Below are positions 1 to 17,696 of a stretch of 24,000 bases of DNA, in pieces. The translations under genes and the position numbers were made by a program. A model generated the notes under the pieces. It did not search any database and was not told the origin of the DNA. It was given only the letters and a program-made list of their open reading frames with translations. Within the stretch, counting starts at the first letter, position 1; each line of letters begins with the position of its first letter. Source of the DNA: Candidatus Saccharimonadota bacterium (GTDB lineage: Bacteria > Patescibacteriota > Saccharimonadia > Saccharimonadales > UBA10212); the NCBI GenBank assembly GCA_028288985.1, contig JAQGHE010000007.1, positions 1 to 24,000 on the forward strand. Direction: 5' to 3'.

Positions 1-3000
1 GACCGCGGTAACATCAAAGCCAACTTCAACAGTATCGGCGAGGTGACCTTCACTGATAAGAATGTGGTTTCTGATAATATTCGTAATTACGCCCCAAACG
101 GCTCGGACTTTTGCCGGCCCGATACGATTGTTTCTAATCCCGATAAGCTTAAGACAAACATCGGTTACGGCATCAACGTCAGCCCTGCCGGAAGTTTTAG
201 CGCCACGGCCGCCAACGGCCAAACCACGCTGGGCCTAGATGCGGAAGTAAAACTAGGTTTTAAGGGAGCAGCGGGTGCCTGCCAAGGTGTATTATTTAAG
301 GCTAAAATAAGCAACCCAGACGGCGTGGCGGAGGCTCTCTTCAAATGGAACGGAGCCAGCATATCAACTCTAGATGGGGCCCAAGACCAGTATACGTTTG
401 ACCAAGGCTCCGGCCTTCTCTACTTGTCGGGTTCTGCTTGCGGTACCTCAACTCTACGGGCAATCTTACTGGACTCTAGCGGGAGTAGCACCGGAAAATA
501 CTATGAGCTGCAAGACATTGGGTTCAACACCTCTAACATCCCTGGTCAATATCCGGCTCTCAATAAGCCTGAGTTCGGTTTTTCAGCCGGTTGTAATGTC
601 TTAGATGGAAGCTTCAAGACAATTAGGATTGCCGGCGCTTCAAGCGGCACCGGGCCCTCGTCATCTACCTCATCATCAACTACAGACGATACTTCCGCTT
701 GCATCCTTAATAGCAACACGACTCTGGAATGGCTTGCCTGTCCTGTAATAACAGCTATTAGTAAAACTGCCGATGGACTCAATAAATTAGTTGAAGATCA
801 GCTAAATTTCAAGACCCAGAAATTCTTAACGCCGGATGTACACAAAGTATGGGCGATCTTCAAAAACTTAGTATCGTCCATGCTTGTGATTGTGATGTTA
901 ATTATGGTTTTTGCACAGGCAATAGGCAGCCAACGGCTGGATGCCTACACGGTCAAAAAAATGCTGCCAAGGCTAGTGATCGCCGTCATAGGTATGCAGA
1001 TTTCATGGGATTTATGCCAGTGGATAATTGGGCTAGCAAACCACGCAGGGGAGGGGATAGGCCAGATAATGGCCGCGCCATTTGGAGGGGCTGGTAATTT
1101 GGATTTAGGTAGTTTGCTAAACCATCTTAACCCGGTGTGGGCAGGTGTAACGTCCGTTACATTAGTGGCTCTTTTGTTTGCAGCCCCCACCCTCGGCTTT
1201 CTATTTCTTCCCGGGGTCGCTTTGGCGGCCTTTGGGGTCTTTATGTCGGTATTAGTAGCACTGGCTACTTTGCTGTTCCGAAATGCGTTGATCATCACCC
1301 TAGTTATGGTATCGCCTATTGCACTCCTCCTATGGGTTTTCCCGGGTTCCGGGACACAGAAGTACTGGAAGTTATGGACGGATAACTTCACCAAAATACT
1401 GCTTCTCTTCCCAATCATGATATCTGTGATTTATGGAGGGCGTATTTTTGCCTATGTGGCGGGGGGACTTCAACCTCCGGGAGTTCTAGATTTTGTTATG
1501 GTATTAATAGGATTCTTTGCACCTTACGCCATACTGCCAAAGGCCTTCAAGTGGGGCGGATCGTTCCTCTCTGCGGCTTATCGAAATGCCGGCGAAAGCG
1601 GCCTAACCAAAAGGCTCCGTGATAGCGGCAATAGGCTTGTCGGGCAGGACTTCAATAACTACTGGAAGGGCAGGATGGCCCGTGAAAGGTATGATCCTTA
1701 TGATAAAAAGTATGGGGTCAGCAGGGCCAAAGTAAGAGGGAAAAGTATCCCAATCCCCATATTGAGGGGCAGGCTGGCGGGGAGGCTTGGTTCTCAGCAC
1801 TTGATGCCCACGGCCCACGGCCGCGCACAGGCCTTACGGGAGGGTGCTACCTGGGCAGGTGAGAGGAAGCAAGATGCTGAAGCCTTCGACAGAAGGATGT
1901 TTGACCTGGCCCAAGAACATGGTTATGCCGTCGATGAGGAAGACAAAGCCTTCCTGCCCGGATTGCCGGAAAATAAGAACAGAAAAGCCAAAAAATACAC
2001 AAATGCCAGGGGTGAAGAAAAGGAGGCCAGGTGGGAACCGGGCGTCGCCGCCGCCAAACAGGCCTTGGTTGATTTAACTTCAATTGCTAACAGTGGAGAT
2101 AAGCGTGTCTCGCAAATGGCCATAGATCTACTTGTTGCAACCAGTTCTAACCCTGAGATTGAAAACAATGTAGTCACCCACGGACCAGAGGCGGGTACCC
2201 GCGTATTCCGCACCAAGACATCAACCGGCAACACCGTCTGGGAAGAGTATATTGGCGGCAGCGACAAGTATGGCACCATAGCCCAAAGCAACTACGACCT
2301 TCAGACCCATGTCCTACAGTACAAATATGATAAAGAAAGGCCCGATCCAAAGAAGAACCCATTGGCGGCCTTCTTGTACGATAAGGCTTTGGTAGAAGGA
2401 CATACTCCCAAAGATCTTGAGGCCGGGACGATTAGAATGGATGACCCGGAGCGCACCCTATACGTAATGGCCAAGGACGCTACGCTGAATGAGTTATCTC
2501 CTCAGAGCCTAGGCTTCTGGCAGCGCCAGCAACGACACCAGCGCTCCGGTGACAAGGAAACACAGCAAGCAATAGGTGATGCCTTGCTGCTCAAACAATT
2601 CGCTAAACTGGTGGCCTTGGGTCCGGGCGGTGTGGGTCAATTTGCGCCTTTCAGGGGTGAGAAGGAAGATATTATCAATAGGATGTTGGCCGAATCCGGC
2701 GCCAAAACGCTAGATGGGAAAAACATAACCGTGGACAATTTGGTTGACATGGCCGGCGACCGCCAAAAATTAGAGGAACATGTCGCTTGGGCACGACCAA
2801 AGTCAAGAGCCCTTGGCGACGAAGACGATGATGGCCCCCCGCCACCACCGCCTCCAGGCGGCCCACCACCATCAGGCAGTCCGCCACCAGCTGGCTCGCC
2901 TCCAACTCCACCAACCAGCGGATCTTCGCCGCCATCGCCTAGTGACGGTCCGGAAACTCCTGCGGGGCCGAGCGCTTCAGGAGGGCTACCATCGGACCCC

Positions 3001-3399
3001 TCCCTCGGAGGAGGTGGTGGTGGCGCAGATGACCATACCGGTGACCGTTCTAGAAGTGCTGGTTCCGGGGCAGCCGGCACCAGAAACGCTTCCCCCAACG
3101 AGCTAATAGTCAATCATCGAAACCGAGCAGAGAACGTAAGCGGAAGCGCCACCGGCACAGGCGCCCCGATTGAAGTCAAGATTTCTTCAGAGTCTATGGG
3201 CGGTCTAACAGATCGCTTGAGACCGGCAATGAAATCTGAATTCAACAAATCGCTGGAAAATTCCGGCCTGATGGATAGACCGCGCCCTCAATGGACTCCA
3301 CCACCAAGTTCAGTCTCAACGCCACCCCCTGGAGCAACTATCCGGCCGAGTGAATCTCCCGAGGCGCCAGCAACCGAACCTGATGAGGAGAATAAGTAA
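1..3399 (+). CDS. VirB6/TrbL-like polytopic membrane protein of a T4SS-like apparatus, probably 5'-truncated by the window, with a long hydrophilic C-terminal region and a Pro/Gly-rich tail
   Basis: Frame 1 is open from nt 1 (DRGNIKANFNSIGE precedes the GTG at 43). The first ~270 aa have no signal peptide or TM although they look extracytoplasmic (Cys pairs, S/T linker GPSSSTSSSTTDD), so the true start is probably upstream. Residues ~270-500 carry about seven hydrophobic helices (e.g. LVSSMLVIVMLIMVFAQAI, VTLVALLFAAPTLGFLFLPGVALAAFGVFMSVLVALATLLF, LIITLVMVSPIALLLWVF, ILLLFPIMISVIYGGRIFAYVAGG, FVMVLIGFFAPYAIL). The gene sits directly upstream of the PrgI-like and VirB4 genes with a TAATG stop/start overlap at 3397-3401. 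The family call rests on architecture and context, not on a recognised motif. Confidence 0.6.
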   Translation, partial: DRGNIKANFNSIGEVTFTDKNVVSDNIRNYAPNGSDFCRPDTIVSNPDKLKTNIGYGINVSPAGSFSATAANGQTTLGLDAEVKLGFKGAAGACQGVLFKAKISNPDGVAEALFKWNGASISTLDGAQDQYTFDQGSGLLYLSGSACGTSTLRAILLDSSGSSTGKYYELQDIGFNTSNIPGQYPALNKPEFGFSAGCNVLDGSFKTIRIAGASSGTGPSSSTSSSTTDDTSACILNSNTTLEWLACPVITAISKTADGLNKLVEDQLNFKTQKFLTPDVHKVWAIFKNLVSSMLVIVMLIMVFAQAIGSQRLDAYTVKKMLPRLVIAVIGMQISWDLCQWIIGLANHAGEGIGQIMAAPFGGAGNLDLGSLLNHLNPVWAGVTSVTLVALLFAAPTLGFLFLPGVALAAFGVFMSVLVALATLLFRNALIITLVMVSPIALLLWVFPGSGTQKYWKLWTDNFTKILLLFPIMISVIYGGRIFAYVAGGLQPPGVLDFVMVLIGFFAPYAILPKAFKWGGSFLSAAYRNAGESGLTKRLRDSGNRLVGQDFNNYWKGRMARERYDPYDKKYGVSRAKVRGKSIPIPILRGRLAGRLGSQHLMPTAHGRAQALREGATWAGERKQDAEAFDRRMFDLAQEHGYAVDEEDKAFLPGLPENKNRKAKKYTNARGEEKEARWEPGVAAAKQALVDLTSIANSGDKRVSQMAIDLLVATSSNPEIENNVVTHGPEAGTRVFRTKTSTGNTVWEEYIGGSDKYGTIAQSNYDLQTHVLQYKYDKERPDPKKNPLAAFLYDKALVEGHTPKDLEAGTIRMDDPERTLYVMAKDATLNELSPQSLGFWQRQQRHQRSGDKETQQAIGDALLLKQFAKLVALGPGGVGQFAPFRGEKEDIINRMLAESGAKTLDGKNITVDNLVDMAGDRQKLEEHVAWARPKSRALGDEDDDGPPPPPPPGGPPPSGSPPPAGSPPTPPTSGSSPPSPSDGPETPAGPSASGGLPSDPSLGGGGGGADDHTGDRSRSAGSGAAGTRNASPNELIVNHRNRAENVSGSATGTGAPIEVKISSESMGGLTDRLRPAMKSEFNKSLENSGLMDRPRPQWTPPPSSVSTPPPGATIRPSESPEAPATEPDEENK
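2821..3025 (+). repeat. Low-complexity Pro/Ser/Gly-rich coding tract inside the VirB6-like gene
   Basis: Translates to DEDDDGPPPPPPPGGPPPSGSPPPAGSPPTPPTSGSSPPSPSDGPETPAGPSASGGLPSDPSLGGGGGG. The DNA is runs of ccn/ggn codons, which also create a stop-free antisense shadow ORF (2637..3113). Confidence 0.85.
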
Positions 3400-7202: not shown

Positions 7203-10200
7203 ATGGCTAATGTGACCCTAGACCCTCGTCAGCAGGGCAATTCTAGTCAAAACTCTGGCGGAAGGGGCCGGCGGACCCGCATCAGGCTAAAGGCCAACGT
7301 TGAAACCGAGACAAAAATTGACTCTGCAACCCCCGTTTCTTCCAGCTCTACTCAAAACGCTCCAGCGATTAATGCGAACAGCCCGGCGCCTGAACCGGCG
7401 CCAAGTGCGCCGTCAAGCTACGGCAATATGCAACCGGCTCAGTCGCCGTACGACTCTCCGGGGAGTCAAACTTCTGAACCGTGGGGTGGCTCTAAAAATA
7501 AAAGTGAGGATGGGCCTGCAGAGACCGGCAGAGGTGATCAGAATACTGGTAGGGCTGATAACCAAGAGGCGACTCAAAGTAATAATCAATCAGTTCCAAA
7601 TACTGCCCAGAGTAACCCTAATATGGGACAATCCCAGCCTACAGCCGGCACTAGAGAAAGTGGCGAGGACGACAAAAATACAAGCTACGGCAGCCAAGGG
7701 GCGAGTCCCAATAGCGGGGGCGGCGGGGAATCAAATGATACGACGGCAGACCCCCAAAAACCAGGCAGCCAAACTTCGGCGTCTGACATTAATGAGTCTA
7801 CTTACGATACTCCCGGCAACCAGCCCTCCAAAGCTGACGATGCTCAACCATCTGGCAATAGCAATCCGGAATCGGAAGGCAAACAATCGGCTTCTCCTCG
7901 GGAAAACTTAGCCAAAGAGGAGGCTGCAGCTGCCGGTTTTAATTACTCCGGAGGCTCAGGCCATGAGAACAAGGTAGGCAAAGGCTATAACAAAAGCCCG
8001 CTTGCTAAAAACCGCCTAGGATTTTTTGGCCAGCGACGGGCGCTTCTGGGCTTAATAAGCGTAGCCCTTGTCGGCGGACTGCTCTCTTTTGGCAGTTTTT
8101 TCAGCACCTTTAAGCTAAACGGTATCATGGAGAATGTTTCGGCCCGCACCTTCGCCCGGCTTAACGGGGTGGAAGATAGGCGCTCTCAGGCTTGGACGCG
8201 TGCCTACATACAGATGAGGTTGATGGACTGGGGCAATAACCCGGATATGACCCCAGGTAAAGAGGAGAATGCCTTGTTTCGGGCTAGCCGGGTCAATCAT
8301 GGATTTACGATTAACCAACTGGCGCTGGACTGGTACCGCACGCTGCGAACCTCGTCGTTCGAGCAGGATGTTTTTGAAAAGCATGGTATTAAGTTTACCT
8401 CTGTTTTCACAGCCGACGGTAAAGTGCGCCCCGGAATAATTAACATCAACGGCGAGAAGACAATGATTGAGCCGGGCAAGGATATACCGATTGCCGATTA
8501 TGAGGGTATTGCCAATGGCAATATAAAAGTCCTCAACAAATACCAAGCCATGCTTGATACCAAGGTCTTTGCTAACGATAAATCCGCCCGCAAAGAAATA
8601 AAGGCGGTTGTAGACAATAACACTCACCATTGGCAGGTTTTCCAGCGGCGGCAGATCAGAAAATCCATCCAGAATATGACGGGGGTACGAAACTGGCGCT
8701 TTTTTGAGAAAACCCGCAATAAGATTGATGATAGTAAAATAAAGATTCGCAACAATATAATCGCTGCCGCCATTCCGGAAAGTACAAAGTCCGGAAAGTT
8801 CGTACGTTGCCTGTTTGGTATATCCTCGTGTACATTCAGCGAGGATCCAGCAGACCCCCAAAATCAGAGCAATAGGGACCTGGCAGGCAACAGCACCACC
8901 AACCCTGGAGACTCCGTAAAAGAAATAGACCCTTCAACCGGCAAGACGATAGACAGCAAGGTTGTCATTGACCTTCAGCCGGCTGCCGATATGGTTAAGA
9001 AAGTAACGGCCGATATCCTGCAAAAGGCAGCACCTGTCATAAATGCTTTAAATATAGTCTCTACCCTGGATAGTCTGAAGGGTATCGATAAAGCTATCCA
9101 AAACAACGATATCAGCAAGTCCGTGGCGGTTGCCAGAGGCATACAGGCTATGGGGCTTTACCAGGTTTTCCAGACGGCCAGCGATCAGTTGAAGACCGGC
9201 CAAGTCAACGGACAGCAGGTCAATGAGTTTATGAAAGTCATCGGACCGGCAGCCTCCAGCGAAGGCTACACCAAAGTTATTGCCGGTAGTGGAGACGGTA
9301 CACCTTTTACGGCGCTTGGCTGGCCTAAATCAGTCAATGCGGCCGCCGACCCCACCAAACTGACCGATTCTGATAAAGCCAAATTTTACTGCACACCAGA
9401 AAACCAGGCTAAGCTGCAAAAAGACCCCAGCCTAGCCGACAAGGATCCAAGGTTTTCTTTCGCTTATCTGTGCCCGGACAAACAGATCGGCAGCAGCACC
9501 AACGCTAATAAAATACAAACCGCCTATAACAGTAGTATCGGCGGTGTCATCCACCCCCTCCTTACTGCCTATGGAAAGGTACGAGATATACCGCTCCTTG
9601 GCGATCTGCTTAGCCTCGCCAACAACATGCTAGGCAGATTATCCGGGTTGGCAACCTCGACTATAAAACCGATACTTTCTGCCCTGGGAATATCCGACGA
9701 CATTACCAAATTTATGGAGTACGTGACACTTAAGATTACCGCCTTCCTGGGCGCCGGGCCGATCATGTCCGGCACAGAGCAGGCTGGTGTTTTTATAAAC
9801 TGGGTGATCCAGGGCGGCGCCTACTCGGCCGAGGCCAGCTCTAGGGCTAACGGCGCTAGTCTTACCACTCCACAGAGCATGGCTGAGTCTACCTTGGCTC
9901 TTAACGGCTATCTGCAAGATAAAAATTCTCAAACCTCCGTGGCGACCAAACTGTTCTCTCTGTCTAATCCGGACTCGCTGGCTTATCGAGCATCGTTTGC
10001 CATCAGCGATCTCAGCCTTTCAAATATATCCAACCGTTTAGTTGGTTTTGCTTCCGGCTTTGGTTCTATTTTCGGATTAGCCTTCCACCATGCGGCCGCG
10101 GCTGCTCCCAGTGGCTATGCGGCTTCCAATTTTGCCGGCATACACACCTTTGATTTTCCATCCCAGTGCTACGGAGACCCTCTACTGGCGACCCCTCAAA

Positions 10201-10979
10201 GCAGCACCAATATCCAGCAGGTTCTCAAAGATAAGAATATCCCCGATAGCGAACTGACTTGGGATTTAGTTACTAATTCTGACAGCTGGTACCAATACGT
10301 CTACAGCAAGACAGACAACGACAGCCTAGCCCAACAGATATATAACTGTGCTCTGCTGGATACTTCTATCAGGGGCGGCCTTGGCAACTTATATGGCTAC
10401 ACCTCCGATAACGGCTTGAATGATTCGGCCGCGCCCTCGGCTGCTACTCAAGTAGCAGCCGGATCAGTGGATATGGCCAGTCTGTTTAATGACTCGCAGA
10501 GTGTCGCCTGTGCGCCAAACACTAAGGATTTGGGCATTCAAGATGGCTACCACACCGGTCAGCTGGTAAAAATCCGGATTTGTTCCGTGCCTGCGGTCCC
10601 CAGCACTTCCCAAGAAAGCAATGGGGGTTTTGGAGTAAGCGGAGCCGGAGGAGGGGTAGTGGTTAATTCCAGGGTCTCGGGAGCAGTCTATGCTATGGCT
10701 CAGGCCGCTAAAGCCAGCGGGGTTTCGCTTACGGCCACCAGCGGATTCAGGACTATGTCCCATCAGCAGTCGCTATGTCCTTGCGACGGCGTGAGGGTAG
10801 GCCTGCCTGGCTATTCCAATCACCAGATGGGATTGGCTATTGATTTTGGCGATCTGCCATCAACTCCGGGTCCTGTACCGGGCAATACCGTCTGGGCGTG
10901 GCTAAGCGGCAACGCTGACAAGTTCGGTTATAAAAATTACCAAGCCGAAGCCTGGCATTGGTCCCCGACCGGCAATTAA
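7203..10979 (+). CDS. Giant bitopic T4SS-associated protein: disordered cytoplasmic N-terminus, one TM, large extracytoplasmic region, C-terminal peptidase M15 (VanY/D-Ala-D-Ala carboxypeptidase-like) cell-wall hydrolase domain
   Basis: The ~280-aa N-terminus is S/N/Q/P/G-rich low complexity (7203..~8040). A single TM, ALLGLISVALVGGLLSFGSFFSTF, lies at ~8041..8110. The C-terminal motifs are SGFRTMSHQQSL, SNHQMGLAIDF (H-x6-D at 10821..10844) and AEAWHWSP (His at 10956..10958). Together these give the H/D/H zinc-ligand pattern of the VanY/M15B family. Confidence 0.75.
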   Translation: MANVTLDPRQQGNSSQNSGGRGRRTRIRLKANVETETKIDSATPVSSSSTQNAPAINANSPAPEPAPSAPSSYGNMQPAQSPYDSPGSQTSEPWGGSKNKSEDGPAETGRGDQNTGRADNQEATQSNNQSVPNTAQSNPNMGQSQPTAGTRESGEDDKNTSYGSQGASPNSGGGGESNDTTADPQKPGSQTSASDINESTYDTPGNQPSKADDAQPSGNSNPESEGKQSASPRENLAKEEAAAAGFNYSGGSGHENKVGKGYNKSPLAKNRLGFFGQRRALLGLISVALVGGLLSFGSFFSTFKLNGIMENVSARTFARLNGVEDRRSQAWTRAYIQMRLMDWGNNPDMTPGKEENALFRASRVNHGFTINQLALDWYRTLRTSSFEQDVFEKHGIKFTSVFTADGKVRPGIININGEKTMIEPGKDIPIADYEGIANGNIKVLNKYQAMLDTKVFANDKSARKEIKAVVDNNTHHWQVFQRRQIRKSIQNMTGVRNWRFFEKTRNKIDDSKIKIRNNIIAAAIPESTKSGKFVRCLFGISSCTFSEDPADPQNQSNRDLAGNSTTNPGDSVKEIDPSTGKTIDSKVVIDLQPAADMVKKVTADILQKAAPVINALNIVSTLDSLKGIDKAIQNNDISKSVAVARGIQAMGLYQVFQTASDQLKTGQVNGQQVNEFMKVIGPAASSEGYTKVIAGSGDGTPFTALGWPKSVNAAADPTKLTDSDKAKFYCTPENQAKLQKDPSLADKDPRFSFAYLCPDKQIGSSTNANKIQTAYNSSIGGVIHPLLTAYGKVRDIPLLGDLLSLANNMLGRLSGLATSTIKPILSALGISDDITKFMEYVTLKITAFLGAGPIMSGTEQAGVFINWVIQGGAYSAEASSRANGASLTTPQSMAESTLALNGYLQDKNSQTSVATKLFSLSNPDSLAYRASFAISDLSLSNISNRLVGFASGFGSIFGLAFHHAAAAAPSGYAASNFAGIHTFDFPSQCYGDPLLATPQSSTNIQQVLKDKNIPDSELTWDLVTNSDSWYQYVYSKTDNDSLAQQIYNCALLDTSIRGGLGNLYGYTSDNGLNDSAAPSAATQVAAGSVDMASLFNDSQSVACAPNTKDLGIQDGYHTGQLVKIRICSVPAVPSTSQESNGGFGVSGAGGGVVVNSRVSGAVYAMAQAAKASGVSLTATSGFRTMSHQQSLCPCDGVRVGLPGYSNHQMGLAIDFGDLPSTPGPVPGNTVWAWLSGNADKFGYKNYQAEAWHWSPTGN

Positions 10980-10986
10980 ACCGCTA

Positions 10987-11015
10987 TTGCTTTTCCTTAT
11001 AAAATATGCTATTAT
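10987..11015 (+). promoter_or_regulatory. Candidate sigma70-type promoter with extended -10 (TTGCTT-17 nt-TATTAT; TGCTATTAT at 11007..11015)
   Basis: TTGCTT at 10987..10992, a 17-nt spacer, then TATTAT at 11010..11015 preceded by TGc. It lies in the AT-rich gap immediately after the M15-protein stop and upstream of the high-GC ORF. An overlapping alternative is TTAAAC (10976..10981)-18 nt-TAAAAT (11000..11005). Confidence 0.4.
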
Positions 11016-11104
11016 AGCGTAGTTCCTCGGTTCTAGCTAGCCCCCAAGGGCCAAGCTTCCGAGAGAACGTTCTTCCCGACAATCTACGCGTGAAAGGTGA
11101 GACG

Positions 11105-11590
11105 ATGCGCCGCAAGCGGACATTCGTTCTTCTGGTCATGAGCTTTGCAGCCATGACCGCAGTGTTCGGCGCCGCCACCGGCAGCGCCGCCACGACCTCG
11201 AAGAAGTTCAGCGTGACTCCCGTCTTGAGCAAACTTCCGGACGGGACCATCAAGGTTGTCCTCACCCTCAAGTACGACGGCCCCGGTAACTCCGGTCGGA
11301 TCTCCGTCGTCTACTCGAGCTTCGCTACGAGACCGTGGCATGTCCAGACGGTCCACCCCCTCATGGGTTCGCTGAAGGCCCGCGGCTACCAGTCGCGGCA
11401 CAACCCAAGTATGCCGGACTACGAAGTGATGGTGATCGGCGGGATCAACTCCGGCGACACCACTAGCGTCTCGGCGCTCTACAGGCTCCCCTTTAAGGGT
11501 GAGTTCTTCCTGAACTTCTTCAGCTGTCCGCTGAAGTACTACAAGAGCGACCCCAAGACCTACTGCGTGACCCAACTATTCCACATCTAA
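11105..11590 (+). CDS. Small secreted protein of unknown function in a compositionally foreign (high GC3) cassette
   Basis: ATG at 11105 is preceded by GAAAGGTGAG (SD-like); the GTG at 11090 in the ORF track is less likely. The N-terminus MRRKRTFVLLVMSFAAMTAVFGAATGSAA is a classic Sec signal peptide with A-x-A-like cleavage. The mature ~135 aa has two Cys (FSCPLKYYKSDPKTYC). Codon third positions are strongly G/C, and two hairpins follow the stop. I recognise no family. Confidence 0.75.
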   Translation: MRRKRTFVLLVMSFAAMTAVFGAATGSAATTSKKFSVTPVLSKLPDGTIKVVLTLKYDGPGNSGRISVVYSSFATRPWHVQTVHPLMGSLKARGYQSRHNPSMPDYEVMVIGGINSGDTTSVSALYRLPFKGEFFLNFFSCPLKYYKSDPKTYCVTQLFHI

Positions 11591-11602
11591 GTCGGGAAGA
11601 GT

Positions 11603-11624
11603 CCGCCGCCCTCCGGGGCGGCGG
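11603..11624 (+). terminator. GC-rich perfect hairpin (CCGCCGCCC-TCCG-GGGCGGCGG) without a U-tract
   Basis: A 9-bp all-G/C stem with a 4-nt loop, 13 nt after the stop at 11590. It resembles the tail-less I-shaped terminators common in high-GC Actinomycetota. Confidence 0.5.
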
Positions 11625-11643
11625 CACTCCCAAGTACGAGACG

Positions 11644-11669
11644 ACCCGCTAACAGCGGGTTTTTTGTTT
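11644..11669 (+). terminator. Rho-independent terminator (ACCCGC-TAACA-GCGGGT followed by TTTTTGTTT)
   Basis: A 6-bp GC-rich stem (11644..11649 / 11655..11660) is immediately followed by a T-run at 11661..11669. Confidence 0.8.
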
Positions 11670-11694
11670 ATAACACCTTAGGGCATGATAAAAT
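11664..11694 (+). promoter_or_regulatory. Candidate promoter with extended -10 (TGaTAAAAT) placed 6 nt before the ATG at 11701, implying a leaderless mRNA
   Basis: TTGTTT at 11664..11669, TG at 11686..11687 and TAAAAT at 11689..11694. A 6-nt spacer (ACGCTT) precedes ATG 11701. There is no SD-like purine tract before this ATG. Confidence 0.45.
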
Positions 11695-11700
11695 ACGCTT

Positions 11701-13005
11701 ATGCTAAAAGAAGGGCGCCGCAGAGCTTCGTGTGCATTGCTGACTCTTCTTTTTTTATGCCTATATATATTTTCTCCCGTTGCCAGCGCCATAAATGCTG
11801 ACGCTATAAAAGCCCTGCAGACGCCGTTTTATGACCCCAACGATAGCATTAGTTGCGGCTCGGCGGCAGTAGGATCAGTTGCTTCGCAGAAGAACATAGA
11901 CTATGCCGGGAGGCCTATTCTTAACCAGGGAATGCTGAAGGCTCTTGCTGAGAACCAGCCGGTTTACGTGCAGGCGGCGGACGCGGCCGGGATCCCTTGG
12001 CAGGCTTTAGCGGCGCTGCACTACCGGGAGCACAGCCTCATCGCCGACTCGCCGAACTCTGACGGAGCCTATCAGATAGTGGGCGGAAAGTACCCTGTGG
12101 GCAATCTGACAAAAGAGCAGTTTTTGGCCCAAAGCATTGATGCCGCTAACTTCATCAAACAGAAAGAGCCGGATTTAACCACAAGCCCCGCGGCAGCAAC
12201 CATAAAGAATGCCTTCGCCCTATATAACGGTTTGCCCGCTTTGTATAAAAGCCAGGCGGTAGCACTCGGATTCAAGGATTCTCAAGGCTATGAGGGCTCT
12301 CCGTATGTCATGAATATAGCAGACGCGCGGAGGGATAACAGCGCAGTGGGGGCTAACCCTAACACATGGCTGCAGTATAGAAGCGCTTCAATTACGGCGC
12401 CGGCCACCAATGACCAATATGGAGCATTTATGGTATACGCCAGCTTGGCCGGGCTGGCTGCTGACGGCGGAGCGTGCGTAGCCAGTACCTGCAGCAACGG
12501 ACCGAGTAATGCCAGCCAGGGATTAAGCCAGGTGCGTCAAAACGTGGTCTGCCTGACTCTGCAGGAGCTGCAAAAATGGGATGTACACAGCGGCAAACTA
12601 ACGCCTGGCAGCGGGTACCTTACATACAGCCAGGATCGCCACGAAGACTGGTGCGCCGACTTCGCCAGCTGGATATACAAACAGGCCGGCTACCCCTTTG
12701 GTGACGGAAACGCTTGGGGCATCCCGGGCGTAGCCAACATCCAGGCGCTAGGGGAGAAGGACAAGAATTTCCATTGGCACCCGGTTGGGACATATGGTCC
12801 CCAGCCCGGAGACCTGGCCATCCACGGCGACAACCACGGCGACTACCACGTGAACCTAGTTACCGGTGTCAACGGTGTCCACCTAACCCTGATCGGGGGC
12901 AACCAGGGCGGGTCCAGCGGCTTTGAAACATCAAGAGTGACAACCTATACGTCTTCGGATTTAACTGACGGAGGCGACATAACGGGCTTTGTGTCGCCGG
13001 AATAA
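11701..13005 (+). CDS. Secreted peptidoglycan hydrolase: C-terminal CHAP domain, possible N-terminal lytic-transglycosylase (SLT)-like region (TraG/PrgK/CwlT-type T4SS hydrolase)
   Basis: Signal peptide MLKEGRRRASCALLTLLFLCLYIFSPVASA. CHAP signature HEDWCADFASWIYKQAGYP (Cys codon 12652..12654) ... GDLAIHGD ... GDYHVNLV (His codon 12847..12849) ... LIGGNQG. The N-terminal half has GIPWQALAALHYREHS...DGAYQIVG (~11989..12090), which loosely recalls the SLT E-S ... G-x-x-Q pattern. This second domain is tentative. Confidence 0.75.
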   Translation: MLKEGRRRASCALLTLLFLCLYIFSPVASAINADAIKALQTPFYDPNDSISCGSAAVGSVASQKNIDYAGRPILNQGMLKALAENQPVYVQAADAAGIPWQALAALHYREHSLIADSPNSDGAYQIVGGKYPVGNLTKEQFLAQSIDAANFIKQKEPDLTTSPAAATIKNAFALYNGLPALYKSQAVALGFKDSQGYEGSPYVMNIADARRDNSAVGANPNTWLQYRSASITAPATNDQYGAFMVYASLAGLAADGGACVASTCSNGPSNASQGLSQVRQNVVCLTLQELQKWDVHSGKLTPGSGYLTYSQDRHEDWCADFASWIYKQAGYPFGDGNAWGIPGVANIQALGEKDKNFHWHPVGTYGPQPGDLAIHGDNHGDYHVNLVTGVNGVHLTLIGGNQGGSSGFETSRVTTYTSSDLTDGGDITGFVSPE

Positions 13006-17244: not shown

Positions 17245-17558
17245 TTTTGTAGTTTAAAAGCTCTCTCAACTCGCTTTAATGTGACCCAAAGTTATCCACT
17301 ACTATAAAGCACGAAGGTATAGTTTTTCCACAGCTTCAGCAAAAAACACTACACAGGCATACTAAAAGTCACGCTTAGGTGAATATTTATGCACACCGCA
17401 AGAGGCCATCTGTTAATGTGTGGATAAAACCACCCCTAAAGTGGACAAGTCTGCCGTTTTTTGTGGCTTACCATTGTTTTTTTAACGTAAGCACGACTTT
17501 GTGGTTGCAAAAAGCCGTACTTCGTGACCTGCGGCTAAAAGTTTGCTAAGGTAGAGGG
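17245..17558. promoter_or_regulatory. dnaA-rpmH intergenic DnaA-box cluster (second part of a bipartite oriC, plus divergent promoters)
   Basis: TTATCCACT at 17292..17300, TTTTCCACA at 17324..17332, a perfect TGTGGATAA (complement of TTATCCACA) at 17419..17427, AGTGGACAA at 17440..17448, and weaker TGTGGCTTA at ~17472..17480. Confidence 0.65.
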
Positions 17559-17696
17559 ATGCCTAAAAGAACATACCAGCCTAAGAAAAGACAGCGCAGC
17601 CGGGAACATGGATTCATGAAGCGGATGGCCACCAAGGCCGGCCGGAATGTACTAAAGCGCCGCCGCCTTAAGGGCCGGGCCCGCCTTTCTCACTAG
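17559..17696 (+). CDS. rpmH: 50S ribosomal protein L34 (not in the ORF track because it is under 60 aa)
   Basis: Translates to [45 protein letters not shown], the canonical L34 sequence. It sits directly upstream of rnpA. Confidence 0.93.

Follow-up and report, generated by a model that had tools for sequence, protein, structure and literature searches.

Chromosomal type IV secretion systems (T4SS) of the monoderm conjugation (MPF-FATA-like) type that adjoin dnaA are a known arrangement in Patescibacteria (PMC12102498), and a homologous T4SS is essential for epibiotic growth in the cultivated Southlakia epibionticum (PMC10633639). Lateral acquisition is also known in Saccharibacteria, as for the arginine deiminase system of mammal-associated lineages (PMC8764695), and lateral transfers have been inferred across habitat transitions of the candidate phyla radiation (PMC8406219). 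Gene transfer into Saccharibacteria, including transfer from the phylum of the cultivated hosts, is a known kind of event (PMC8764695, PMC8406219). These bacteria are naturally competent, the few members in culture grow on Actinobacteria (PMC10633639), and the two groups co-occur in soil (PMC8406219). Here we analysed the first 24,000 nucleotides (nt) of contig JAQGHE010000007.1 (assembly GCA_028288985.1, Candidatus Saccharimonadota), hereafter the window, in which a T4SS operon carries, between two of its genes, a short GC-rich cassette encoding a single protein of 161 amino acids (aa).

We consider it probable that this cassette was captured recently, as a single gene, from an unsampled bacterium of high GC content (in all likelihood an actinomycete) and entered the T4SS operon of a soil Saccharibacterium. 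Capture of a gene from the host phylum had been put forward in the original prediction, and this core reading is backed by the GC content at third codon positions (GC3), by the location of the homologues and by seven syntenic loci of related genomes. As in the acquisitions already known in Saccharibacteria, an epibiont with a reduced genome would have gained a foreign gene, Actinobacteria are hosts or co-residents, and natural competence offers a route. The present case differs from them in being a single orphan gene with unameliorated donor-type codons, lying inside a T4SS operon near the origin, and the relatives of the cassette belong to soil Gaiellaceae-like Thermoleophilia and not to the oral hosts known for Saccharibacteria. 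The insert and its two flanks contain the following features, with positions in the window.

7203..10979, plus strand: large T4SS-operon protein, 1258 aa; native upstream flank, outside the insert
10980..11021, plus strand: AT-rich left junction, GC about 0.28
10997-11005, plus strand: -10-like box TTATAAAAT in the left junction
10999-11010, plus strand: first copy of the direct repeat, ATAAAATATGCT, in the left junction
11022..11104, plus strand: GC-rich 5' leader of the cassette, holding the left inverted-repeat arm and the Shine-Dalgarno (SD) sequence
11071-11080, plus strand: left arm of the inverted repeat, TCTTCCCGAC, 25 nt before the cassette ATG
11095-11100, plus strand: SD sequence AGGTGA, 4 nt 5' of the ATG
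11105..11590, plus strand: cassette coding sequence (CDS), 161 aa, with a signal-peptide-like N-terminus (about aa 1-30) and a mature part of about 131 aa
11084..11575, minus strand: antisense shadow open reading frame (ORF), 163 aa, with GC contents of 0.84 at first (GC1) and 0.50 at third codon positions, the mirror of the plus-strand codon bias
11591-11600, plus strand: right arm of the inverted repeat, GTCGGGAAGA, directly after the stop codon
11603-11611 / 11616-11624, plus strand: all-G/C 9-bp hairpin CCGCCGCCC-tccg-GGGCGGCGG, without a T tail
11643..11670, plus strand: intrinsic terminator, an 8-bp stem GACCCGCT-aac-AGCGGGTT (11643-11661) followed by the T-run TTTTTGTTT
11671..11700, plus strand: AT-rich right junction, with the promoter-like site of the CHAP gene and the second direct-repeat copy
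11688-11699, plus strand: second copy of the direct repeat, ATAAAATACGCT
11701..13005, plus strand: CHAP-domain T4SS cell-wall hydrolase, 434 aa; native downstream flank (Pfam CHAP 8e-10)

The cassette was first singled out as compositionally foreign, and a comparison with the normal gene-to-gene range of GC3 placed it outside that range. GC3 of ORF 11105-11590 was 0.84, and the remaining 18 genes of the window ranged from 0.40 to 0.66. Among 468 size-matched windows of 161 codons taken from these 18 genes, the mean GC3 was 0.578 (sd 0.071) and the maximum 0.764, giving the cassette a z of 3.7. Expressed as excess over the locus mean, the cassette reached +0.27, compared with a largest value of +0.17 in seven related Saccharibacteria loci (66 genes). 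The codon counts given by hand in the original prediction were reproduced, with 50 of the first 60 codons of the cassette ending in G or C against 26 of 60 for the gene starting at 11701, Lys encoded by AAG 10 times and by AAA once, and Phe by TTC 9 times and by TTT twice. GC1 (0.49) and GC at second positions (GC2, 0.46) were native-like.

We also scored codon usage against a native table built from the 18 window genes (leave-one-out) and an actinobacterial table built from 14 histidine-kinase genes of Gaiellaceae-like Actinomycetota loci. Results showed a log-likelihood ratio (actinobacterial versus native) of +0.165 per codon for the cassette; all 18 native genes fell between -0.24 and -0.67, and the actinobacterial homologues of the cassette between +0.09 and +0.19. 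With a 4-mer model (actinobacterial versus native), 11051-11400 was the top-ranked stretch of the window, and the k-mer signal was back at native values over 11601-11700. Composition and codon usage of the cassette are in this way beyond the range of the resident genes. The sole ribosomal-protein gene in the window, rpmH, which at 45 codons is a thin control, has a GC3 of 0.65 and uses AAG 5 times and AAA twice; the GC3 of the cassette is far above it, and expression-linked bias is therefore an unlikely explanation.

Total GC was less distinctive, with comparable peaks at 2700-3150 and 12600-12900. The former was considered as a second foreign island and ruled out by its GC3 of 0.47. This stretch, which lies inside the 43-3399 gene and is the second-highest peak (GC 0.62-0.64), encodes a low-complexity linker rich in Pro, Gly and Ser (PPPPPPPGGPPPSGSPPPAGSPP...), with high GC1 and GC2. 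The stop-free shadow ORF that had been predicted on the opposite strand is present, and its reading as a real gene was ruled out by codon-position GC; the homologues support the plus-strand frame.

The insertion site could be compared in related genomes through the CHAP protein, which has 130 homologues, the named ones from Saccharibacteria or Saccharimonadales and the closest 53% identical. Seven distinct loci were compared (L002, with its near-identical twin L003, L004, L005, L006, L063, L064 and L065), and all share the order PrgI, TraC-like, VirB4, large protein, CHAP, ..., recF, dnaN, dnaA. Between the large gene and the CHAP gene the gap is -14 to +1 nt in all seven, so that the genes overlap or abut, versus 721 nt in the window. 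The CHAP start at 11701 also lines up with the beginning of the homologues, which places the cassette at a junction where, in the relatives sampled, the two genes overlap or abut. The predicted insertion between two T4SS hydrolase genes was borne out by this presence/absence check, the cassette being absent at the syntenic position in 7 of 7 loci, all from distant relatives. Because the sampled relatives are distant, the dating is loose, and the insertion can be placed only after the split from these seven. The unameliorated GC3 argues for a recent event.

The third line of evidence comes from the homologues. A word-indexed search of a collection of 5.8 billion clusters returned only the cassette protein itself, and phmmer against 1.84 billion representatives returned the protein itself and P0002 (160 aa, E-value 1.2e-4), to which it is 30% identical over 137 aa in a pairwise comparison (E-value 5e-13). 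A metagenome scan and a profile search extended the family to about 50 clusters of relatives of about 160 aa (P0002, P0128-P0176), 25-31% identical, of the same length and with the same signal peptide and domain layout. A hidden Markov model built from 44 members without the query gave the mature domain of the query 27.4 bits, versus 5.9 for the best of 2000 shuffles; the homology therefore extends beyond a match of signal peptides. In the full-length family alignment Y57, G59-P60-G61, S63-G64 and a C-terminal Cys are invariant.

The relatives are not restricted to Patescibacteria. Leaving aside the query, the 11 carrier contigs examined have 64-68% GC and come from soil, and the named carriers are metagenome-assembled genomes (MAGs) of Actinomycetota, in line with the predicted origin. 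The kinase gene of one carrier contig (L007) is 100% identical to that of the MAG 'Actinobacteria bacterium AC_11' (L014), which also carries a family gene; kinases 73-84% identical to it belong to MAGs that carry the labels Gaiellaceae, Thermoleophilia or Actinomycetota, and the nearest named relatives of the AC_11 MAG are Gaiellaceae (Thermoleophilia). The family gene occupies the same locus in three MAGs (L014, L015, L052) and is absent from the other loci fetched, which points to a narrow family that is apparently inherited vertically there. No Patescibacteria homologue was found with phmmer or in the word-indexed search, and IMG/VR, PLSDB and INPHARED held no relatives. The closest homologues of the cassette are thus in another lineage whose composition matches that of the cassette. 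Altogether, a homology that is real but remote supports an affinity at the level of the phylum Actinomycetota, naming neither donor nor host.

In the actinobacterial genomes the family gene has as neighbours a divergently oriented unknown secreted protein, a convergent HlyIII-family gene and an OmpR-type two-component system. The family gene and the HlyIII-family gene share 14-17 nt at their 3' ends (2046-2531 / 2515-3180 in L007, 1043-1525 / 1512-2123 in L001); the conserved unknown secreted protein lies upstream, and the OmpR-type response regulator and histidine kinase are 1.4 kb away. A paralogy between the family and this upstream secreted neighbour was rejected, as profile comparison gave no relationship. 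Compared with the Gaiellaceae-like family of about 160 aa, the window protein likewise combines a signal peptide with a single beta-rich domain and has the motif Y-x-G-P-G-x-S-G and the C-terminal Cys. The family proteins have a near-invariant N-terminal DDTPAG and are rich in Arg and Ala, whereas the window protein lacks DDTPAG and is Lys-rich; identity of 25-31% and another genomic context also set it apart.

The protein encoded at 11105-11590 has the same sequence as MDB5160722.1 (JWO96_102), which comes from a 28.8-kb contig of a Candidatus Saccharibacteria MAG. By inspection, its N-terminus looks like a Sec-type signal: MRRKR is followed by a hydrophobic stretch (mean hydropathy 2.2 in a 15-residue window) and then ATGSA/A, so that inspection and hydropathy identify the n-region, h-region and cleavage motif of a putative Sec-exported protein. 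The mature part, of about 14 kDa, is basic (15 K+R, 7 D+E), is predicted as all-beta, and contains 2 Cys and the motif Y-D-G-P-G-N-S-G. AlphaFold2 gave, with low confidence, beta strands in both runs and a helix at residues 3-20; its predicted local distance difference test scores of 47 (single sequence) and 51 (44-sequence alignment) make both models too poor for use, and Foldseek with the low-confidence model against the PDB returned nothing below an E-value of 0.2. Searches of the window protein and of its family against Pfam, NCBIfam, PADLOC, PHROGs and PDB profiles were empty.

At the left junction, GC rises to 0.56 over 11016-11104, passing 0.55 from about 11030. The original prediction placed an extended -10 promoter upstream of the cassette. 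This did not hold, as the box TTATAAAAT lacks the TG and the promoter scan, which gave no call at 10997-11005, called only the pre-CHAP copy of the two. No terminator was found between the stop at 10979 and the cassette, and read-through from the operon would therefore be equally possible. A perfect 11-nt palindrome, GCTATTATAGC, lies at 11008-11018, directly 3' of this first -10-like box, in the position of an operator or a transcription start.

The predicted 11/12 direct repeat around the insert is present at 10999-11010 and 11688-11699. It does not extend further, it was equalled in 32 of 2000 shuffles of the flanks (p about 0.016), and the only two mismatch-free matches to ATAAAATAYGCT in the window are its two copies, both of which overlap -10-like boxes. 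The proposal that the insertion duplicated the downstream gene's promoter is only partly sustained: the repeat fits it, but at 12 nt and with modest significance a shared function explains it equally well. A perfect 10-nt inverted repeat also surrounds the CDS; when the two untranslated regions were shuffled, 19 of 3000 trials gave a repeat as long, and no target-site duplication flanks the one observed. Its arms could pair the beginning of the mRNA with its end, or they could be a relic of a mobile unit.

On the other side of the CDS, the all-G/C hairpin without a T tail and the canonical terminator behind it were both found as predicted. Local GC at the first is 0.81-0.84, and this hairpin probably arrived with the foreign DNA. 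The second, with its GC-rich stem and T-run, is an intrinsic (Rho-independent) terminator; considering the native k-mer signal across 11601-11700, it may be either foreign or native. Folded jointly, the tandem hairpins reach -45.4 kcal/mol (z = -5.4). Rfam on 10900-11800 gave only sub-threshold matches to small RNAs, on the terminator hairpins. Further downstream, the scan called a promoter-like site for the CHAP gene, TTTATA-16-TAAAAT with TG (TGATAAAAT box), whose -10 lies at 11689-11694 and ends 6 nt before the ATG at 11701. The gene has no SD sequence, and this leaderless-type arrangement suggests that its mRNA is leaderless. TATA-rich motifs also abut the ATG of three more genes without an obvious SD (7203, 17798, 18210); leaderless starts may be common in the source organism.

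By considering these features, a scheme of the event can be proposed. About 640 bp (roughly 11022-11661) would have integrated exactly at the junction of the large gene and the CHAP gene. The insert holds an intact gene unit and may have come in as such, with its GC-rich leader and SD sequence, the CDS with its signal-peptide-like N-terminus, and the GC-only hairpin. Because Saccharibacteria are naturally competent, the simplest route of entry would be that DNA of a neighbouring or host cell was taken up and then integrated by illegitimate recombination. Read-through of the T4SS operon, initiation at the -10-like box at 10997-11005, or the two together would transcribe the cassette, with transcription presumably ending at the tandem hairpins (11603-11670). 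In bringing or creating a terminator, the insertion would be polar on the CHAP gene, which would be served instead by its own promoter and the leaderless-type start at 11701.

Several points weigh against a recent capture from an actinomycete. The junctions are known from the assembled contig, and expression and export are predicted from sequence. Identity to the relatives is only 25-31%, and the E-value is modest (1e-4) over the whole database; if the event is recent, the true donor is missing from a collection of 15 billion proteins. The cassette protein is also Lys-rich and Ala-poor, unusual for an actinobacterial proteome of 65-70% GC. Moreover, the CHAP protein is at most 53% identical to its relatives, so that the date of insertion is only loosely constrained and the ancestral arrangement in this lineage is an inferred one. 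The first of these points touches an assembly artefact, in which a short high-GC stretch of a co-occurring genome would have been spliced into a Saccharibacteria contig. The source is indeed a MAG contig of the short-read era (28.8 kb), composition switches sharply at both ends and no closer relative confirms the arrangement. Such an artefact nevertheless needs two independent mis-joins within 650 bp, with a return into the same operon in register, and the foreign piece is one whole gene unit lying exactly between genes, whereas a random chimera cuts arbitrarily. The AT-rich non-coding junctions and the CHAP promoter-like site without SD fit an adaptation to polar insertion, and the sole repeat shared by the junctions, 12 nt long, is too short to mislead an assembler. 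We regard the artefact as very unlikely.

A native or anciently resident gene could in principle have gained G/C-ending codons by selection, for instance under very high expression, its actinobacterial relatives then being recipients or unrelated. GC1 and GC2 of the ORF are native-like and rpmH leans to G/C-ending codons too, so some expression-linked bias may exist. A GC3 of 0.84 is nonetheless far above that of rpmH and of every size-matched window, the non-coding leader and the first hairpin are GC-rich as well, none of the seven syntenic relatives has the gene, and the phmmer and word-indexed searches returned no Patescibacteria homologue of it. The gene is common in the actinobacterial clade (about 50 clusters), at a conserved locus in three MAGs that fits vertical inheritance there, and we give native origin very little credence. 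Just as improbable would be a small mobile element, MITE-like (miniature inverted-repeat transposable element) or cassette-like, bounded by the 10-nt inverted repeats or by the 12-nt direct repeats. The former closely bracket the CDS, with the 19 of 3000 shuffles mentioned above, and the latter flank the whole insert (p about 0.016); their copies, however, overlap -10-like boxes, so that a shared promoter function could explain them. No target-site duplication stands beside the inverted repeats, neither repeat, nor the element, occurs again elsewhere in the window, and the viral, plasmid and phage records contain no relatives. The 24-kb window has no integrase, transposase or transfer RNA (tRNA) gene. 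The cassette accordingly lacks the transposase, target-site duplication and second window copy of a MITE or insertion-sequence-type element, having only the 10-nt inverted repeat; it also lacks the integrase of an integron gene cassette, for which no formal attC model was run. As a mobility signature the 11/12 direct repeat is the only candidate, and transformation does not require one.

The original prediction also suggested that the secreted protein could inhibit, or give immunity against, one of the two neighbouring hydrolases (M15 or CHAP). This would amount to a toxin-immunity-like module on a protein whose C-terminal domain is variable. The position directly 3' of a variable C-terminal hydrolase domain recalls polymorphic toxin/immunity loci, and the small size and predicted export signal of the protein would suit this role. 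As in polymorphic toxin/immunity modules and the T4SS effector-immunity pairs of Xanthomonadales (10.1101/2023.08.28.555164), a large protein with a variable C-terminal hydrolase stands beside a small protein with predicted export; the defining co-variation of the C-terminal domain with the downstream gene is not seen here. The M15 domain is native in composition and the cassette foreign, so the two did not arrive together, and in two relatives whose large protein bears a different C-terminal extension (L005, L006) nothing is encoded between it and CHAP. None of the actinobacterial homologues, placed beside HlyIII, the unknown secreted protein and the OmpR-type system, adjoins an M15 or CHAP hydrolase, and Pfam, NCBIfam and PDB gave no match to any known family, inhibitor families included. 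No support emerged for the idea, and an inhibitor or immunity function appears very unlikely. Nor is the cassette a component of the Patescibacteria T4SS, being absent from the seven syntenic loci and matching no T4SS family in Pfam or NCBIfam.

With low confidence, we suggest that the protein may be an exported accessory factor, outside the T4SS itself, that would bind or modify an actinobacterial-type envelope component at the surface of the epibiont, where it meets the host, and so keep the role it has in its actinobacterial source. We rate it about as likely that the protein is a recent passenger under no selection. More specifically, a host-derived envelope protein could have been reused at the T4SS contact site, by molecular mimicry or by binding to the host wall, its affinity then being a fingerprint of the host. 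We hold this last possibility to be doubtful. If true, Thermoleophilia/Gaiellales-like Actinomycetota would be hosts of uncultivated soil Saccharibacteria, and the unameliorated codon usage would mean that gene flow from host to epibiont is ongoing. To our knowledge, the hosts of soil Saccharibacteria are essentially unknown. A gene with donor-type codons and with relatives only in soil Actinomycetota is in this respect a checkable lead linking an uncultivated epibiont to a host phylum. Under the favoured capture from a high-GC bacterium, the cassette would be a clean example of ongoing gene capture by a reduced, naturally competent genome. It would also indicate that a polar insertion can be tolerated within a conserved T4SS operon, one homologous to the operon that a cultivated Saccharibacterium needs for epibiotic growth; a terminator and a new leaderless-type promoter would here have taken the place of a tight gene overlap. 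The locus reveals no new kind of system, and it provides an entry point to an undescribed family of proteins of about 160 aa.

The operon that hosts the cassette is a Patescibacteria T4SS of the monoderm conjugation type, beside the replication origin, as described in PMC12102498, which it matches in PrgI, a TraC-like protein, a VirB4/TraG P-loop ATPase, a large protein, CHAP, and recF-dnaN-dnaA. The genes of the window run in the following order.

First part, in order: 1118-aa protein, PrgI, 274-aa protein (TraC-like in the relatives), VirB4/TraG-type ATPase, 1258-aa protein, cassette, CHAP-domain protein, 134-aa protein
After the 134-aa protein, on the other strand: recF, dnaN, a small ORF, dnaA
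After dnaA: rpmH, rnpA, yidC, jag

Pfam supported the M15 and CHAP domains that had been assigned to the two neighbours of the cassette, and gave no SLT domain in the CHAP protein, where one had also been proposed. The VanY/M15 domain covers aa 1154-1254 of the 1258-aa protein (nt about 10662-10964, Pfam VanY 3.1e-12). We considered whether it was part of the insert, which was ruled out by its native GC3, the last 300 codons of the 7203..10979 gene ranging from 0.50 to 0.58. Because its codon usage is native, the M15 domain would be an older gain.

The C-terminus of the large T4SS protein (aa about 1000-1258 in the window) varies between relatives. Those of L002 (4386-7004) and L004 (4408-6999) have no extra C-terminal domain, those of L005 (3891-7007) and L006 (2919-6323) have unrelated extensions without a Pfam match, and among these five large proteins only that of the window ends in VanY/M15. 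The T4SS operon has a second variable spot at its end: between recF and the small gene that follows CHAP, relatives hold 1-4 extra genes without a Pfam match (L002 8838-9539, L005 8848-9600, L006 8130-10868) that the window does not have. Further along the window, the AT-rich gap between dnaA and rpmH (17245-17560, GC about 0.41) is the probable oriC region.

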